Source: a virus
Lineage: Duplodnaviria > Heunggongvirae > Uroviricota > Caudoviricetes
Direction: 5' to 3' (one strand)
DNA length: 41,171 nucleotides
IMG/VR virus record: IMGVR_UViG_2778261424_000010
Coordinates: 1 to 41,171 of that record
Shown: one piece after another, positions 16,434-21,531 of the stretch
Layout: each line of letters starts with the position of its first letter
How positions within the stretch are numbered: position 1 is the stretch's first letter
Made by a program: the position numbers and the translations under genes
Notes under the pieces: generated by a model
Seen by the model: the letters and a program-made list of their open reading frames with translations, nothing else
Told to the model about the DNA's origin: nothing
Database searches by the model: none

Positions 16434-16820
16434 ATGTCCGATCCAATTTCCGGTACTGGGCTGGCTGGTGGTGCCCTGACGGGTGCCAGTGTTTATGGAC
16501 TGCTGACCGGAACTGATTACGGCGTTGTATTTGGCGCATTTGCAGGGGCTGTATTCTACATAGCAACAGCAGCGGATCTGAGCGCATCGCGCCGACTGGC
16601 ATATTTTATCGTGTCGTATATTGCCGGGATCCTTTGCTCTGGGTTGGTTGGCTCCAAGCTGGCAAGCTTGACCGGATACAGTGATAAACCTCTGGATGCC
16701 ATTGGTGCCGTAATCGTATCTGCTTTAGCCGTTAAGATCCTGACGTTCCTGAATAATCAGGATATCGGGTCGCTGGTGGCGCTCATAACGCGCCGGGGAG
16801 GTTCAGGTGGAGCTAAATGA
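16434..16820 (+). CDS. Holin
   Basis: 128-aa Gly/Ala-rich multi-TM protein at head of lysis cassette. Confidence 0.65.
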   Translation: MSDPISGTGLAGGALTGASVYGLLTGTDYGVVFGAFAGAVFYIATAADLSASRRLAYFIVSYIAGILCSGLVGSKLASLTGYSDKPLDAIGAVIVSALAVKILTFLNNQDIGSLVALITRRGGSGGAK

Positions 16821-17088
16821 CCCGACAGCAACTATAAACGCGCTGTTATGTGCTTGTGTTGTTATTACTCTGATGTTTTATCGTCGTGGTGATTCGCGGC
16901 ATCGTCCTTGGGTTTCACGTTTAGCCTGGCTGATTACTGTTACATACAGTGCTGTTCCGTTGGCCTATCTCTGTGGGATTTATCCCCATTCCTCATGGCC
17001 CATTATCGTGGCGAATACTATTTTTCTTTCCGTGCTGGTGGCCGTCAGAGGCAACGTTGCACGCCTGGTTGATCATCTGAGGCACTAA
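16807..17088 (+). CDS. Holin-like / lysis-associated membrane protein
   Basis: 93-aa hydrophobic ORF between holin and endolysin. Confidence 0.5.
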   Translation: MELNDPTATINALLCACVVITLMFYRRGDSRHRPWVSRLAWLITVTYSAVPLAYLCGIYPHSSWPIIVANTIFLSVLVAVRGNVARLVDHLRH

Positions 17089-17702
17089 TGAACCAACAAT
17101 TATTTCAAAAGGCGGCTGGTATCAGCGCCGGACTGGCTGTGCGCTGGTTTCAACCAGTAGATGCAGCGATGAAAGAATTCGGCATTACAGCACCCGCGGA
17201 TCAGGCCATGTTCATCGCTCAGGTAGGTCATGAGTCAGGCGGCTTTAGCGCTGTAGTTGAAAATTTGAACTACACACCATCTGCGCTGGTGGCGACCTTC
17301 GGAAAGAGGATCACACAGCAGCAGGCTGATGCGCTTGGCAGAACAACCGAACACGCAGCCCGCCAGGATGCTATCGCCAATCTGGTGTATAGCAACCGCC
17401 TGGGTAACAAAGCGCCCGGCGACGGCTGGAAATATCGCGGCAGAGGGTTAATTCAAATCACTGGCCTCGACAATTATCGCACCTGCGGGGCTGCTCTGAA
17501 GTTAGATTTGGTGACTTCACCTGAACAACTGGAACAGGAACTACAGGCTGCGCGCTCAGCTGCATGGTTCTACACCTCTAAAGGCTGCATGATCTACGGT
17601 GCCGATATTAATCGTGTTACTCGCATCATTAACGGCGGTCTGAACGGTATTGAGGATCGTAAGGTCCGATACAACAAGGCGCGGGCGGCGCTGCTGGTAT
17701 GA
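17088..17702 (+). CDS. Endolysin (GH19 chitinase-like lysozyme)
   Basis: FIAQVGHESGGF and GRGLIQITG motifs typical of GH19 phage endolysins. Confidence 0.8.
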   Translation: MNQQLFQKAAGISAGLAVRWFQPVDAAMKEFGITAPADQAMFIAQVGHESGGFSAVVENLNYTPSALVATFGKRITQQQADALGRTTEHAARQDAIANLVYSNRLGNKAPGDGWKYRGRGLIQITGLDNYRTCGAALKLDLVTSPEQLEQELQAARSAAWFYTSKGCMIYGADINRVTRIINGGLNGIEDRKVRYNKARAALLV

Positions 17703-18091
17703 AGATGAGTTATTGGGCGCTCATTTTAACGTTTATTGCTTGTATTGCTGGTGGTCTTGTCTGGTCAGCGAATCATTACCATGGAAAGTTTCTGGAGGAA
17801 CAGCGGCGCGCTGACGATGCAGAACAGCGCGCTGATTCCTTTGAGACCATCACCGCGAATGTCCTGCGCACCGTAGCAATAACGAACATCATTCTGGAGA
17901 CAAATCAATATGCCAGGCAGCAGATCGCACTGGAGTCACAGAGAACCGAGAACGATATCAAGGCTGCTGTTGCGGATGATGATTGTGCTGTTCGTGTTGT
18001 GCCTGCTGGCGCAGTTAAGCGGCTGCACGAATACGCGAACGGTCTTCGTGCCGGTTCCGGTAGTTCCGTTACCAGCCAGCCTGACGGCTGA
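17699..18091 (+). CDS. Rz-like i-spanin
   Basis: N-terminal TM (YWALILTFIACIAGGLVW) then coiled-coil; follows endolysin. Confidence 0.7.
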   Translation: MKMSYWALILTFIACIAGGLVWSANHYHGKFLEEQRRADDAEQRADSFETITANVLRTVAITNIILETNQYARQQIALESQRTENDIKAAVADDDCAVRVVPAGAVKRLHEYANGLRAGSGSSVTSQPDG

Positions 18092-18254
18092 AACACCCCA
18101 GCCAGATTTACCCGACCCGTTTACGTGGGGAGCAAGTCTTAACCTGAATGTCACGTTGCTGTCAGCGCTGGCGCAGTGCAACAGGGATAAGGCTGATATC
18201 AGGACTTTCGAGAACAACAGGGCAGGACAAACCGATGGCACGATTAAACGTTGA
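17976..18254 (+). CDS. Rz1-like o-spanin (lipoprotein) in +1 frame overlapping Rz
   Basis: Lipobox LLAQLSG|C and Pro-rich mature part; starts inside Rz and extends past its stop. Confidence 0.65.
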   Translation: MMIVLFVLCLLAQLSGCTNTRTVFVPVPVVPLPASLTAETPQPDLPDPFTWGASLNLNVTLLSALAQCNRDKADIRTFENNRAGQTDGTIKR

Positions 18255-18420
18255 AGTTATCCCACCAGACAGCGAGGCGCTGAACGGGATTTTTGCAGAG
18301 ATTGAGCGCAAATATGCGCGTCAGCCGCTGACACCAAAAGTAATTGATGAAATGCAACGCGAAGCGACGCGCCTTGTGCGGCGAATGATAACCACAAAGG
18401 TTACGTTCGTCCGGGACTGA
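18235..18420 (+). CDS. Hypothetical small protein
   Basis: 61-aa ORF from internal ATG (MARLNVEVIPPDS...). Confidence 0.3.
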   Translation: MARLNVEVIPPDSEALNGIFAEIERKYARQPLTPKVIDEMQREATRLVRRMITTKVTFVRD

Positions 18421-18474
18421 CATTACAGAAGCCCTTCACTGAGGGGCTTCGATAATGGAGCACTGGAATTATTC

Positions 18475-19095
18475 ATGAACAGACCACACCCACCAGCGCA
18501 TTTTACGATGCCATCTGACCCGAAGCCTTACATCAGCATAATGCCCGCCAGTGACGTTGGCCAGTGGCTGAATCAGCACATCCTGAGTGATGAGGGTGAC
18601 CTCTACAACCCTGACCACCAGCATTTGCTTGAAGCGGATCTGTGCTTTCTCTGGGCGTCGAACGCTTTCGAGAAAAAAGGGCGTTCCGTGCTGGGACAGG
18701 CGGAAGAAGTGGCAATGCGGGCTGGAGGCTGGCAGAAAGCGCGGATGGAGCAACAGATGTATGAATGGTTCGGCAGGGTGCCGCAGTTCATCATCACGCT
18801 GGCCGCCGATTACTGTTCGCAATGTTCCGATCTGGAGTTCTGCGCGCTGATAGAGCACGAGCTTTATCACATCTGCCAGGCGACAGATGAATTTGGCGCG
18901 CCGAAGTTCACGCAGGAAGGGCAGCCAAAGCTGAAGCTGCGCGGCCATGACGTGGAAGAGTTTGTGGGCGTGGTTCGCCGTTACGGTGCGAGCCGTGATG
19001 TGCAGGAAATGATTGATGCGGCGAATCAGCCAGCGGAGGTTGCTCATCTCGATATTGCCAGAGCTTGCGGGACGTGCATGCTGCGACTGGCTTAA
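18475..19095 (+). CDS. Putative HExxH zinc metallopeptidase
   Basis: HELYH motif (…ALIEHELYHICQ…); between lysis cassette and terminase. Confidence 0.45.
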   Translation: MNRPHPPAHFTMPSDPKPYISIMPASDVGQWLNQHILSDEGDLYNPDHQHLLEADLCFLWASNAFEKKGRSVLGQAEEVAMRAGGWQKARMEQQMYEWFGRVPQFIITLAADYCSQCSDLEFCALIEHELYHICQATDEFGAPKFTQEGQPKLKLRGHDVEEFVGVVRRYGASRDVQEMIDAANQPAEVAHLDIARACGTCMLRLA

Positions 19096-19125
19096 AACTG
19101 GACTGAATAAGACGAATGGTGATTT

Positions 19126-19599
19126 ATGGCTGCATTAAAACCTGATGTGAAAGCCTTCATCATTCAGTCGCTTGCGTGCTATGACACGCCGACGCAGGTG
19201 GTTGAGGCTGTCCAAAAAGAATTCGGGATCAAGATCACCCGCCAGCAGGCTGAATCTCACGACCCCACGAAGGCCAGCGGTAAGACGCTCGCCAAAAAGT
19301 GGATCGAGATGTTCCACGCTACGCGCGAACGGTTCCTGACCGAAACCAGCGACATTCCGATCGCGAACAAATCCTATCGCCTCCGCGTGCTTGACCGCAT
19401 GGCAACCAAAACCGAGGGGATGAAAAACTTCTCCCTGACGGCGCAGCTGATTGAACAGGCCGCGAAAGAGGTTGGCGACGCTTACACCAATAAGCTGAAG
19501 GTTGAAAGCACTGGCAAGGATGGCGGCCCGATCAAGACCGAGACGACCAACCTCACCGCAGATCAGGCCGCAGAGATTTACCGCAAGATGATGGGGTGA
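19126..19599 (+). CDS. Putative terminase small subunit
   Basis: 157-aa ORF upstream of large terminase; assignment by position. Confidence 0.4.
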   Translation: MAALKPDVKAFIIQSLACYDTPTQVVEAVQKEFGIKITRQQAESHDPTKASGKTLAKKWIEMFHATRERFLTETSDIPIANKSYRLRVLDRMATKTEGMKNFSLTAQLIEQAAKEVGDAYTNKLKVESTGKDGGPIKTETTNLTADQAAEIYRKMMG

Positions 19600-19624
19600 T
19601 AGCCGCATGTTGCGGCTATGGATT

Positions 19625-19837
19625 CTAGGCTTGTTTTGGTCGAGTAATACGGCCAAGAGCTTTAATTGCAGCGACTTTGACGTTGTGATTTAGATCCGAA
19701 GATAAATCAAGTAAGCGATTTACATGAGCTGGCGTTGCTGAAGCACTCTCGCCGAGAGCATAAATTGCAGACAATTTTACTTCGTTGTTAAGGTCGTTGG
19801 TTAATTCCAACAACTTAGCGCTAACTGCTGGTGTCAT
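19625..19837 (-). CDS. Antisense cargo gene: 70-aa protein of two HEAT-like repeats
   Basis: ATG with AGGAGG SD 5 nt upstream; repeats LLELTNDLNNEVKLSAIYALGE and LLDLSSDLNHNVKVAAIKALGRI; AT-rich. Confidence 0.5.
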   Translation of the reverse strand: MTPAVSAKLLELTNDLNNEVKLSAIYALGESASATPAHVNRLLDLSSDLNHNVKVAAIKALGRITRPKQA

Positions 19838-19908
19838 AAAACCTCCTGTAATTGGTACATAAACAATATCAACTTTGTTACGCAAAAACTCAATGCCTGG
19901 AATTGTTT

Positions 19909-21531
19909 ATGCCTCTTCCGTTTGAATTCGATTTCAGAAACCCTGATTACCAGATGGTTTTTGAATGGCGGATGGAGCGCTTACAGCGCATTCGCCAGAA
20001 CCCTGAAATGCTACCAGCGCTAAAGCAGTTTTATCGCACCAACCCGGCACAGTTCATCATCGACTGGGGTATGACTACTGACCCGCGTAACATCGATTAT
20101 GGCCTGCCGGTCACCATCCCTTTTCTGCTGTTCCCGAAACAGGAAGAGTGGATTCACTGGATCATGGAGCGGCGCGAACGACTGGAGAACGGCATCACCG
20201 AAAAGAGCCGCGAAATGGGGCTCAGTTGGACCGCGATCGGGCTGGCCTGCTCGCTTTGTCTCTTCAACAAAGAAATGGTTATCGGTTTCGGCTCCCGTAA
20301 AGAGGAATACGTCGACAGCACCGGTGACCCGAAGGCGCTGTTCTGGAAGGCGCGAAAGTTCGTGGAAACACTGCCCATCGAGTTTCGTGGTTCGTGGGAC
20401 GAGAAGAAGCATGCGCCGTATATGCGCGTTGAGTTTCCAGATACTGGCGCGGTTATCAAAGGCGAGGCTGGCGACAATATCGGACGTGGTGACCGTACCA
20501 CGCTCTACCTAGTGGATGAAGCTGCATTCCTCCAGCGTCCTCTGTTGATTGATGCGGCGCTGTCGCAAACCACCCGTTGCCGTATTGACCTGAGCTCGGT
20601 TAATGGCATGGCGAACCCGTTCGCGCAGAAGCGCCACGGCGGAAAGATACCAGTATTCACGTTCCACTGGCGAGATGACCCGCGCAAGGATGAAGAGTGG
20701 TATCGCAGGGAGTGCGAGAAAATCGACAATCCGGTGGTGGTGGCGCAGGAACTTGACCTGAACTACAGCGCATCTGCGGAAGGCGTCCTGATCCCGTCCG
20801 ACTGGGTACAGGCTGCCGTCGACGCGCATATCAAACTTGGTATTCAGCCAACGGGCAAGCGACTGGGCGCGATGGACGTCGCCGACGAAGGCCGGGACAA
20901 AAATGCCTTTTCGACCCGTCACGGCTTCCTTCTGGAGAACGTGCGTGAATGGTCCGGCGTTGGCAGCGACATTTACCAGTCTGTTGAGAAGGTCTTCGGC
21001 TTTTGCGAACAGGACAACCTCGAAGAGTTTCGCTTCGACGAGGACGGCCTGGGTGCTGGCGTTCGCGGCGATGCGCGCGCCATCAACGAACTGCGTTACG
21101 CAGCGCGCCGACCGTCAATACTCGCCACACCGTTTCGTGGTAGCGGCGCGGTATTTGATCCGGACGATGAAGCGGTGCGCGGGGACAACGGACAGGCCGC
21201 ACGCCTGAACAAGGACTTCTTCGCCAACGCCAAGGCCCAGAGCTGGTGGTGGCTACGCAAGCTTTTCCAGAACACCTATCGCGCCGTGGTTGAGGGCATG
21301 GCCTACAACCCGGACGAAATCATCTCAATCAGCAGCGCCATGGCGAGCAAAGACAAACTCATCATTGAGCTGTCGCAGCCGACCTACTCCATTAATGGCG
21401 TGGGGAAAATCGTTGTTGATAAACAGCCTGATGGCACCAAGTCGCCGAACCTCGCCGACTCGGTGATGATCAGCTACGCGCCAATGAATTCAGCCCTGAA
21501 CATCTGGGAGCTGCTAGGGAGACAGGCCTGA
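19909..21531 (+). CDS. Terminase large subunit
   Basis: about 540-aa ORF with ATPase and nuclease regions (LYLVDEAAF…); ORF track begins at upstream TTG 19852. Confidence 0.85.

Follow-up and report, generated by a model that had tools for sequence, protein, structure and literature searches.

The gene at 18475..19095 (+ strand) of the window, by which we mean the whole analysed stretch of 41,171 nucleotides of a Caudoviricetes virus (IMG/VR record IMGVR_UViG_2778261424_000010), belongs to the family PF18894 ("PhageMetallopep"), and it forms a fixed pair with the gene that follows it, which encodes a small terminase (TerS) of the DUF2280 type, the protein that picks out viral DNA to be packaged. 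It is also the first conserved gene of the packaging operon. When related loci were gathered with a 17-sequence PF18894 alignment, a DUF2280 gene lay directly downstream of PF18894 in all 167 informative loci, at a gap of 10-59 nt, and the spacer between the two genes measured 30-33 nt in 150 of 152 loci. The spacer of the window (19096..19125, +) is 30 nt long and carries the Shine-Dalgarno sequence GGTGA. The same adjacency is seen in HTH-fused distant members, and it occurs in Pseudomonas, Acinetobacter and Vibrio phages. Furthermore, the phage record counts for PF18894 and DUF2280 are equal (Acinetobacter 62, Pseudomonas 44, Vibrio 8, Burkholderia 7). A search for more distant phage relatives with the divergent seeds P0224 and P0270 retrieved an identical set of 144 phage records. 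Gene adjacency does not prove that PF18894 and TerS interact functionally or physically.

The sequence-only reading had placed the gene between the lysis and the packaging modules. In the window, a holin gene (16434-16820), a gene for a GH19-type endolysin (17088-17702) and one for an Rz-like spanin (17699-18091) lie upstream and packaging genes downstream, but the placement misdescribes the gene: across the family PF18894 is the conserved first packaging gene, tied to DUF2280, and only 13 of 169 loci have an Rz lysis gene no more than 700 nt away. The genes upstream of PF18894 are diverse, making up 101 clusters in 161 loci, and no third conserved partner was found on that side. A portal gene is among the packaging-side genes downstream of PF18894 in the window. 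Two plasmid records were examined as candidates for a terminase-independent plasmid context, which was rejected as both are prophage remnants and keep DUF2280 downstream of PF18894. On an Acinetobacter plasmid, an intact PF18894 gene stands beside a broken terS, and this could hint at terminase-independent use.

DUF2280 is a small terminase, because the sequence of its final 30 residues follows the type of large terminase (TerL) and because its tail is shared with a Terminase_2 TerS that serves a 96%-identical TerL. The DUF2280 gene of the window (19126..19599, +) encodes 157 aa and matches Pfam PF10045 at E=9e-50. In most loci the gene occupies the TerS position, abutting or overlapping that of TerL, and in the Burkholderia phage Magia it is annotated as "terminase small subunit". 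According to a review of TerS proteins, small terminases are about 15-21 kDa in size and TerL is bound by the TerS C-terminus in lambda and P22. The TerL-matching module of the window TerS is its C-terminal tail, residues 119-157 (19480..19596, +). Over the last 30 aa, TerS identity is 65.1% within a TerL cluster versus 17.2% between clusters, and over the N-domain it is 74.3% within versus 65.7% between. The TerL type is thus mirrored by the TerS tail but not by PF18894 or the N-domain of TerS. The TerL partners of the cassette make up at least nine unrelated clusters, and PF18894 and the DNA-recognition N-part of TerS are transferred together by recombination to these unrelated TerLs, with only the last ~30 TerS residues exchanged. 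A search of DUF2280 against PDB sequences gave no match.

A natural swap illustrates this exchange. The TerL of the window (19909..21531, +; its true start is M20 of the listed TTG ORF) and the protein annotated as TerL in phage vB_EcoM-606R2 are 96% identical across 540 aa, in an alignment that begins at residue 20 of the window ORF. In that phage, however, the 96%-identical TerL is preceded by a Terminase_2 TerS and there is no PF18894; the tail of this Terminase_2 TerS is 64% identical to that of the window TerS. In addition, 181 Salinibacter phage records have a DUF2280 terminase without PF18894. Because DUF2280 occurs without PF18894 in Salinibacter phages and a near-identical TerL works with a Terminase_2 TerS, packaging as such does not require PF18894.

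The 54-nt spacer upstream of PF18894 contains a hairpin (18421..18457, +; MFE -21.6 kcal/mol, z = -4.64), and none of 200 shuffles was as stable. It has no T-run and is not among the predicted terminators; it marks the boundary between variable and conserved genes and is not a canonical terminator. No promoter was found directly upstream of PF18894. A moron origin of the gene was rejected, as it has no promoter of its own and its GC content matches that of the neighbour genes, whereas the morons here differ in GC. A cis element such as a pac site inside PF18894, which might have explained the linkage, found no support either, since diversity at synonymous sites stays level over both the PF18894 and the DUF2280 gene; PF18894 is under purifying selection at the protein level. 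A natural in-frame PF18894-DUF2280 fusion (P0271), a single lineage assembled independently in at least four metagenome samples, indicates that PF18894 is physically compatible with TerS. Programmed stop-codon read-through to such a fusion was rejected, because the spacer frames are split 20/34/20 with no preference and 17 of the 20 in-frame spacers hold a stop. ORFs of 398 and 695 aa labelled DUF2280, which had been candidates for further PF18894 fusions, are actually decayed prophages fused to tail genes.

The product itself is, judged by its sequence, a typical short-form, full-length PF18894 member. The ORF is ATG-initiated, has 206 aa and lies, with its HELYH, where the sequence-only reading had put it, as both the ORF list and the DNA confirm; the peptide quoted there, CSQCSDLEFCALIEHELYHICQATDEF, corresponds to residues 114-140. 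In a Pfam scan the product matches PF18894 at E=2.6e-43 over profile positions 2-134 of 134, with a score of 147.7 bits versus a gathering cut-off of 23.7, and PF18894 is present in all 132 aligned homologues. The product also matches PHROG 513 (E=2.7e-97), which is the equivalent of PF18894 in that database. Thus it shares with PF18894 and PHROG 513 the full-length match and the invariant HExxH, and does not differ from them. An N-terminal R-P-x-P-P motif (18481..18495, +) is conserved (R3 73%, P4 90%, P6 89%, P7 86%), and this confirms the annotated start as the true one, or nearly so. The product appears to be soluble and single-domain: it has no hydrophobic segment (maximum Kyte-Doolittle value 0.83), and no signal peptide or membrane segment was found in it.

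The HELYH motif (H128-E129-L-Y-H132; 18856..18870, +) is the candidate zinc-binding and catalytic motif and lies at the C-terminal end of a predicted helix. The six-frame translation of the window contains two HExxH motifs, versus 2.3 expected by chance, and ~0.6% of 206-aa proteins would carry it by chance. An HExxH in one sequence is therefore at chance level, and it is conservation, not the lone motif, that is evidence. The protein has 3501 homologues, and the family, with 893 representative clusters, shows an essentially invariant HExxH. Among 131 diverse representatives (clusters at 50% identity), H128 and E129 are conserved in 100% and H132 in 99%; the refutation that had been proposed, namely that the motif is not conserved among homologues, thus does not apply. 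In the alignment A1 of homologues, H128, E129, H132, H158, G171 and C198 are invariant, and the full ten-residue ligand pattern is retained in 95 of the 131 sequences.

The third zinc ligand may be sought in H158-D159-V-E161 (18946..18957, +), where H158 is conserved at 98%, D159 at 93% and E161 at 95%. H158 is the best candidate and E161 the alternative, since H158 is substituted in 2 of the 131 sequences and E161 in ~6. The active site is probably H128-E129-x-x-H132 plus H158, in which three His would bind the metal and the Glu would be catalytic, and the invariance of the Glu favours catalysis over purely structural metal binding. Cysteines need a correction. The region around HELYH had been described as Cys-containing, but its CSQC is conserved at only 20% and is not a family trait (C114 20%, C117 20%, C123 76%, C134 ~0%). 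The conserved cysteines, which the earlier description did not mention, are at the C-terminus in C198-G-T-C201 (19066..19077, +; C198 98%, G199 96%, C201 89%). By analogy with proabylysin and Wss1, this motif is a candidate cysteine switch or, otherwise, a second metal site, to which the conserved His pair H48-Q-H50 (18616..18624, +; H48 98%, H50 95%) might possibly contribute together with C198 and C201. In the AF2 model, the tail carrying C198 and C201 has a pLDDT of 76 dropping to 51.

The fold was approached with two AlphaFold models, one full-length (pLDDT 94.8) and one of the core only, residues 53-186 (pLDDT 96.1). The AF2 secondary structure consists of strands, a helix (85-99), a strand (105-110) and a helix (119-131) that carries HExxH, an order compatible with the zincin fold. 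Nevertheless, Foldseek with the full-length and core models gave no match in the PDB at E<=0.001, zincins included (TM 0.13-0.26), and the core-only search did not retrieve the structures of 4JIU, Wss1 or Spartan. Searches of the PDB by phmmer and by profile, with the window protein and alignment A1, gave nothing meaningful. A zincin fold is thus unconfirmed, and it is the motif block that suggests it. In a published HHpred analysis, a homologue from the Burkholderia phage vB_E192a was related to the minigluzincin proabylysin (4JIU) with 93.7% probability. SprT-like Pfam matches are weak, being seen in 6 of 132 members with a best E of 0.012, below the gathering score, and the window protein has no match to SprT-like (PF10263) at E<=0.1. 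When A1 was aligned by hhalign with SprT (YggI) of E. coli, the strand-helix-HExxH blocks were paired, at a probability of 4.7% and over 32 columns, a likeness at the level of the motif only. With a limit of E<=1, none of the 132 members matched Peptidase_M78 (PF06114), and an NCBIfam scan of the protein gave no matches. In the literature on PF18894, DUF2280 and JBD44 gp16, functional data were not found, nor any member with a published activity. Consequently, the proposal that the gene encodes a small zinc metallopeptidase keeps the support of the conserved motif, the PF18894 membership and the published HHpred link to 4JIU; on the other side, neither a PDB match for the fold nor a report of peptidase activity in any member was found.

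Several known systems resemble PF18894 in part. HExxH proteases encoded beside the gene of their HTH DNA-binding substrate protein are represented by ImmR-ImmA and DdrO-IrrE; ImmA/IrrE proteins (M78, COG2856) are sometimes fused to an HTH and have their third ligand ~26-29 residues after the motif. PF18894 is similar in that its HExxH gene is fixed beside the gene of a DNA-binding partner, in its HTH fusions and in the spacing of its candidate third ligand, but its neighbour is a terminase subunit, not a repressor, and it sits in a late operon, not an immunity region. Proabylysin, like the PF18894 protein, is a small soluble HExxH protein with a C-terminal tail. It is latent because its own tail fills the cleft and touches the zinc, and the conserved C-terminal tail of PF18894 with its invariant Cys is comparable. 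In contrast, the PF18894 protein is about twice as large, shows no Foldseek similarity and has its candidate third ligand His 26 residues past the motif, and proabylysin is archaeal with no phage or DNA context.

The SprT, WLM (Wss1) and Spartan proteins share with PF18894 the HExxH and a third His (a candidate in PF18894), the block that aligns with E. coli SprT, and an association with DNA, which for PF18894 would come through HTH fusions and the DNA-binding partner. Wss1 has DNA-activated proteolysis and a cysteine switch, and SprT of E. coli carries a zinc ribbon at its C-terminus. However, PF18894 falls below the Pfam threshold, pairs with SprT by hhalign at the low probability given above and has no Foldseek match to Wss1 or Spartan structures; moreover, its setting is phage packaging and theirs is DNA repair, so the likeness concerns the proposed logic and not membership. 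The HNH protein of the HK97 gp74 type resembles PF18894 as a small metal-dependent enzyme (predicted for PF18894) encoded beside the terminase genes and missing in many related phages, although HNH and HExxH proteins are unrelated in fold and motif. As reported in a paper citing Kala et al. 2014, GP74 of HK97 stimulates cos cleavage by TerL, and this is a precedent for an accessory metal enzyme that can assist the terminase. An HNH gene is adjacent to PF18894 in only 2 of 169 loci. Phages of Acinetobacter and Burkholderia have HNH genes next to the cassette, and because both genes occur together in some phages they are not substitutes for each other.

We give about an even chance to the reading that we prefer, in which the PF18894 protein would be a zinc hydrolase, and probably a protease kept latent, that acts as an accessory packaging-initiation factor at the TerS-DNA complex; zinc binding, hydrolysis, latency, substrate and packaging role are here what we infer. 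The protein, cytoplasmic, single-domain and zinc-hydrolase-like, would reach the DNA through TerS or, in roughly one cluster in four, through an N-terminal HTH of its own, and its conserved C-terminal Cys tail would keep the protease inactive. Its target may be TerS or some other protein bound to the DNA where packaging is initiated, and the working logic would be like that of the minigluzincin, Wss1 and SprT enzymes. A more specific form of this reading is put forward tentatively and is rather unlikely as it stands: PF18894 would be a regulated proteolytic third component of the terminase, a zincin of minimal size whose fold resembles no solved structure, docked on the N-part of DUF2280 or on DNA via an HTH, held latent by the Cys tail, activated at the initiation complex and cleaving TerS or a DNA-bound obstacle. 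Cleavage by such a third component would govern the timing or the frequency with which packaging series begin.

A protease with no part in packaging, which rides with terS at the start of the late operon and acts against a host protein or a competing element (take-over, anti-defence or anti-satellite), is an alternative that we consider possible yet doubtful. It would agree with the dispensability of PF18894 both for DUF2280 packaging in Salinibacter phages and for the TerL type of the window. The family is restricted to phages of Proteobacteria, as expected of a lineage-specific target, and the identity of 60-68% between enterobacterial and Pseudomonas phages, that is, across host genera, fits a conserved cellular target; the intact gene beside a decayed terS on the Acinetobacter plasmid and the location at a boundary where variable genes gather point in the same direction. 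On the other hand, constant adjacency to one TerS family with a spacer fixed at 30-33 nt is unlike accessory effectors, and the real morons here vary freely, as the 101 upstream clusters show, and differ in GC. A PADLOC scan gave no defence-system match for PF18894 or DUF2280, HTH fusions indicate DNA rather than a cytosolic target, and fusion to TerS is tolerated.

The protein might also be no protease at all but a zinc-binding third subunit of the DUF2280 terminase that recognises or cuts the packaging site, either as a DNA-recognition cofactor or as a nuclease with an HExxH site, and we regard this as improbable. The swap described above accords with it, as PF18894 plus the N-domain of DUF2280 replace the single N-domain of Terminase_2 before the same TerL, and so does the N-terminal HTH extension present in 35 of 131 clusters (~27%). 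Likewise, HNH endonucleases in the same position in HK97-type phages assist cos cleavage, HNH genes adjoin the cassette in the phages named above, and the fold matches no known peptidase. But the invariant Glu of HExxH and the SprT-like strand-helix-HExxH block are hallmarks of zincin peptidases, and the published HHpred result points to a peptidase; besides, TerL has its own nuclease, and the DUF2280 terminases of Salinibacter phages need no such subunit.

A prohead (head-maturation) protease is very improbable: the gene encodes a putative protease near head genes, and no classical one was recognised among the window head proteins scanned, but it lies upstream of terS and not between the portal and capsid genes, it co-occurs with unrelated head modules, one of which has its own S49 prohead protease, and it tracks TerS and not the type of portal or capsid, as the portal type of the window is found in no more than 23 loci, and its TerL type in 11. 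Hardly credible is a transposase or a cell-wall peptidase of the lysis cassette, since the former, a label carried by PHROG 513 and by GenBank/RefSeq phage records including ZF40 gp39, JBD44 and phiPSA1, conflicts with PF18894 being the sole Pfam domain of the window protein, which has no DDE, HUH, recombinase or transposase catalytic domain and lacks the N-terminal HTH extension, and the latter, suggested by the location after the lysis genes in the window, conflicts with the missing signal peptide and membrane segment and with the rarity of a nearby Rz. The transposase label arises because HTH_Tnp_1-type matches occur in the N-terminal extensions of a few longer homologues (only 4 of 132 members), and on the sequence evidence it is unsupported.

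PF18894 is already catalogued in Pfam and bears the NCBI name "putative metallopeptidase", so the family is known and its context is new; an obligate companionship of PF18894 with a small terminase was not found in the searchable literature. PF18894 travels with the DNA-recognition half of TerS among nine or more unrelated packaging motors, so that an orphan family now has a concrete position in the phage life cycle, one that can be tested. In addition, DUF2280 is identified as a small terminase, a "transposase" annotation propagated through PHROGs and several phage records is corrected, and a confidently predicted fold without a solved relative is flagged. If a protease does act on the initiation complex, it would be a new layer of control in the packaging of temperate phages of Acinetobacter, Pseudomonas, Klebsiella, Burkholderia and Vibrio, and such phages matter for transduction and for the design of phage therapy. 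If, moreover, PF18894 were a third component of the terminase, it would be the first protease shown in the machine that initiates phage DNA packaging.

The window carries an integrase, DnaB, antiterminator Q and lysis, packaging, head and tail genes and is that of a temperate phage or prophage; over the PF18894 region its nearest sequenced relative is Citrobacter phage Omnitron (98% protein identity). The PF18894 gene (18475..19095, + strand) has an ATG start and encodes 206 residues, and both this ORF and its HELYH motif (residues 128-132, inside the peptide of residues 114-140 quoted by the sequence-only reading) are present where that reading had placed them. Six-frame translation of the window gives two HExxH motifs where chance predicts 2.3, and some 0.6% of proteins of 206-aa size would carry one, so that the weight of the motif rests wholly on homologues. 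Upstream of the gene lie a holin (16434-16820), a GH19-type endolysin (17088-17702) and an Rz-like spanin (17699-18091), and between Rz/Rz1 and PF18894 there is a small ORF (18148-18420, probable start 18235) whose match to PHROG 12811, of unknown function, begins at residue 30. The 54-nt spacer directly 5' of the gene contains a stable hairpin (18421-18457, GAAGCCCTTC...GAGGGGCTTC core; -21.6 kcal/mol, z = -4.64), which is not a canonical terminator because it has no T-run. Downstream follow the DUF2280 gene (19126-19599), TerL and then the portal.

The window protein matches PF18894, "Putative phage metallopeptidase", over its full length (E=2.6e-43) and PHROG 513 (E=2.7e-97); its membership of PF18894 is virtually certain, and among the known protein groups with which it was compared as a possible relative, this is the only one to which it can be assigned. 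Neither the NCBIfam models nor PADLOC gave a match, the PDB held no relative by sequence, and neither a hydrophobic segment nor a domain beyond PF18894 was found in the protein. Homologues number 3501 in a large protein database, and when 1.84 billion cluster representatives were searched exhaustively, 893 clusters emerged at E<=1e-3, 155 of them at E<=1e-30. Among 131 near-full-length representatives (34-85% identity to the query), H128 and E129 never vary (100%) and H132 is kept in 99%; the motif thus withstands the refutation test proposed for it, namely lack of conservation among homologues. The cysteines singled out in the same reading are not features of the family (C114 20%, C117 20%, C123 76%), and it had missed H48-x-H50 (98% and 95%), H158-D-x-E161 (H158 98%, D 93%, E161 95%), C198-G-x-C201 (C198 98%, G 96%, C201 89%) and the near-invariant G171 and N-terminal P-x-P-P. 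Substitutions affect H158 in only 2 of the 131 sequences and E161 in about 6, which points to a three-His site as the likeliest active-site arrangement.

The AlphaFold2 model, built from a 132-sequence alignment, has a pLDDT of 94.8 and a pTM of 0.89, and its confidence drops only over the last ~15 residues, where the Cys motif sits. The predicted secondary-structure elements follow one another as they could in a zincin: several strands come first, then helix 85-99, strand 105-110 and helix 119-131, at whose end HExxH sits. Foldseek with the full-length model found nothing significant among 350,542 PDB chains (best E=0.82, TM about 0.2), and in a viral model library it retrieved nothing but predictions likewise named "putative phage metallopeptidase". 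The search was repeated with a model of the core alone (residues 53-186, pLDDT 96.1) to let minimal zincins surface; this too gave nothing significant, and no zincin was among the top 50. By contrast, for the homologue in Burkholderia phage vB_E192a, an independent, published HHpred search gave 93.7% probability to PDB 4JIU, that is, proabylysin, a minigluzincin which is latent as its own C-terminal tail fills the cleft and contacts the zinc. The remote-homology tests run here were weak: Pfam SprT-like matched below threshold in 6 of 132 members, and hhalign against authentic E. coli SprT gave 4.7% probability over 32 columns, which match up the strand-helix-HExxH blocks of the two proteins. 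The active-site element is zincin-like, but the global fold, as modelled, is not recognisably like any solved structure, and a zincin fold for the protein is putative.

The genomic context was analyzed in 169 loci: IMG/VR and bacterial genomes (one per species) contributed 80 each, and phage loci made up the rest. The description of the gene as lying between lysis and packaging modules does not hold for the family, in which an Rz spanin lies within 700 nt in only 13/169 loci and a same-strand DUF2280 gene is next downstream in all 167 loci with room for it (gap 10-59 nt, median 31). After start codons had been refined, 150/152 loci had a spacer of 30-33 nt. Of the two loci lacking DUF2280, one is a 684-nt contig and the other a linear phage record that stops at this place, with an HNH gene before its end. 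The ORFs upstream are diverse, with 101 clusters in 161 loci, the PHROG 12811 type preceding PF18894 in only 6/169; the large ORF after DUF2280 belongs to at least nine unrelated clusters, and the TerL type of the window occurs in just 11 loci. Annotated Pectobacterium, Pseudomonas, Acinetobacter and Vibrio phages share the order PF18894, DUF2280, TerL with a different upstream gene in each, and metagenome members fused to a helix-turn-helix (HTH), 40-45% identical, keep this order with different portals, capsids and proteases downstream. The PF18894/DUF2280 counts in phage records are 62/62 for Acinetobacter, 44/44 for Pseudomonas, 8/8 for Vibrio and 7/7 for Burkholderia, and divergent seeds retrieve the same 144 phage records. 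The cassette is very probably real and functionally meaningful.

The spacer (19096-19125 in the window, and its equivalents) contains a Shine-Dalgarno sequence and short direct repeats, GAC..GAC or, in another spacer type, ATGAC-N5-ATGAC, which could be a regulatory or protein-binding element. An HNH gene adjoins PF18894 in 2/169 loci. Such a gene lies directly downstream of it in Burkholderia phage vB_PL1 (locus L004) and upstream in Acinetobacter phage Ab105-2phi (L003), so in these phages the putative metal-dependent enzyme PF18894 and a metal-dependent HNH enzyme of a different kind both sit beside terS as accessories. Two plasmid records proved to be decaying prophages with DUF2280 still downstream. 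In one of the 67 Acinetobacter plasmid records, A. pittii p1_100004 (L173, 4474-6243), the one looked at for the state of terS and terL, PF18894 is intact, the adjacent terS frameshifted and terL truncated, which could reflect recent decay or a gene kept for another use.

DUF2280 proteins are of the size, and lie at the position, expected of a small terminase (TerS), and their genes abut or overlap terL. When pairs of loci with the same TerL cluster were compared with pairs of different TerL clusters, the last 30 residues of DUF2280 were 65.1% versus 17.2% identical, its first 100 residues 74.3% versus 65.7%, and PF18894 76.8% versus 69.0%; this conservation pattern of DUF2280 fits the architecture of a TerS. 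In addition, Escherichia phage vB_EcoM-606R2, whose TerL is 96% identical to that of the window, lacks the PF18894 gene, and its TerS, directly after Rz, is a Pfam Terminase_2 protein that over its last 39 residues shares 64% identity with the DUF2280 tail of the window. This natural swap confirms, at the sequence level, that DUF2280 is the small terminase. The swap and the co-variation of the tail together indicate that what PF18894 accompanies is the DNA-recognition part at the N-terminus of one TerS family, and not the motor, the head or the lysis cassette. The dependence is one-sided: DUF2280 (33% identity), TerL and portal are present in 181 Salinibacter phage records, in which tblastn found no PF18894. 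In Salinibacter phage 4_20 (L170, OR896284.1, 2932-5599), TerL and portal come after DUF2280, and the upstream gene encodes an unrelated multi-pass membrane protein of 172 aa for which Pfam gave no match.

The mechanically called TerL ORF of the window (19852-21531) begins at a TTG (19852), and alignment to the annotated 96%-identical TerL places the true start at the ATG at 19909; Pfam gave no match for this TerL type at E<=0.1. Between the terS stop (19599) and this start a low-GC island (19600-19908, 0.425 against about 0.55 in the flanks) is inserted; in vB_EcoM-606R2 terS and terL abut. On its minus strand an ORF of 86 aa (19625..19885) with HEAT-repeat-like sequence and a weak PADLOC match to HEAT-ARM_XIII (E=1.7e-4) resembles a moron at an unexpected location.

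Several explanations of the linkage were considered. A role in head maturation is unlikely, since the head modules found with the gene are unrelated to one another, and one of them encodes an S49 protease of its own. That PF18894 is itself a moron finds no support, its GC content (0.55-0.58) being that of its neighbours and no promoter being found before the gene. Nor is there support for a pac-type DNA site hidden in the gene: synonymous diversity is roughly flat along it (0.35-0.54), which with the high amino-acid conservation indicates that selection acts on the protein. A Rosetta-stone search of a 5.8-billion-protein database with concatenated PF18894 and DUF2280 yielded a single fusion cluster, P0271 (374 aa, with both Pfam domains), and different assemblers recovered the identical ORF from four or more gut metagenome samples; in it the stop codon has become Trp, followed by an 11-codon linker into the TerS start. 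P0271 shows that a covalent PF18894-TerS linkage is tolerated in circulating phage, in one lineage only. Spacer frames of 20/34/20 and stops in 17/20 in-frame spacers lend no support to programmed read-through. In two prophages (L066, 1599-2795, and L147, 5644-7731) an in-frame junction joins the DUF2280 N-domain to sequence resembling a tail fibre or a tape measure; both are deletion remnants and not functional fusions.

PHROG 513 carries the label "transposase", as do homologues in ZF40, JBD44 (RefSeq), phiPSA1, vB_SosS_Oslo and others; the unsupported label also stands in GenBank/RefSeq records of YMC11/02/R656 and vB_AbaS_TRS1, and other records name the protein "toxin", "proteasome subunit beta" or "indoleacetamide hydrolase". 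The label probably originates from longer homologues: 35/131 representative clusters have N-terminal extensions of 40-117 residues, most with an HTH signature, and a few members match HTH_Tnp_1, HTH_8 (Fis type) or MerR. These extensions are DNA-binding modules without a catalytic transposase domain, and the annotation is unsupported and propagated between records.

The analysis establishes the family, the invariant HExxH/H158/C198 set, the TerS cassette, its modular exchange against other TerS N-domains, protein-level selection, the HTH fusions and a tolerated fusion to TerS. Beyond this, the protein is probably a metal-dependent hydrolase, in which zinc would be bound via H128, H132 and H158 with E129 as catalytic base. 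It may act at the TerS-DNA initiation complex, reaching DNA via TerS or its own HTH, and the C-terminal Cys tail might, by analogy with proabylysin and Wss1, hold it latent until engaged; it would act either on TerS or on some other protein bound to DNA. Such work in packaging, on TerS or on a DNA-bound protein, is a tentative assignment. Of the two main rivals, an effector against a host or competing-element protein, merely riding with terS, is rather unlikely, and a non-proteolytic third terminase subunit, zinc-binding or nuclease-like, is less probable still. For the packaging hydrolase proposed here, the nearest working analogues include ImmA/IrrE-type proteases, which are paired with an adjacent HTH substrate, by that pairing; minigluzincins and SprT/Wss1 proteases, by site and latency logic; and HK97 GP74, as an accessory metal enzyme of a terminase.

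No functional study of the PF18894 family was found in the searchable literature, and the sole paper found citing it lists it as an accessory gene with no role assigned; the window gene is a fresh member of an already known, functionally uncharacterised family. As first stated, a metallopeptidase-like gene is an ordinary finding. The main new result is the PF18894-DUF2280 genomic context, and it is the coupling to TerS, the identity of DUF2280 as a TerS and the orphan fold that are worth following.
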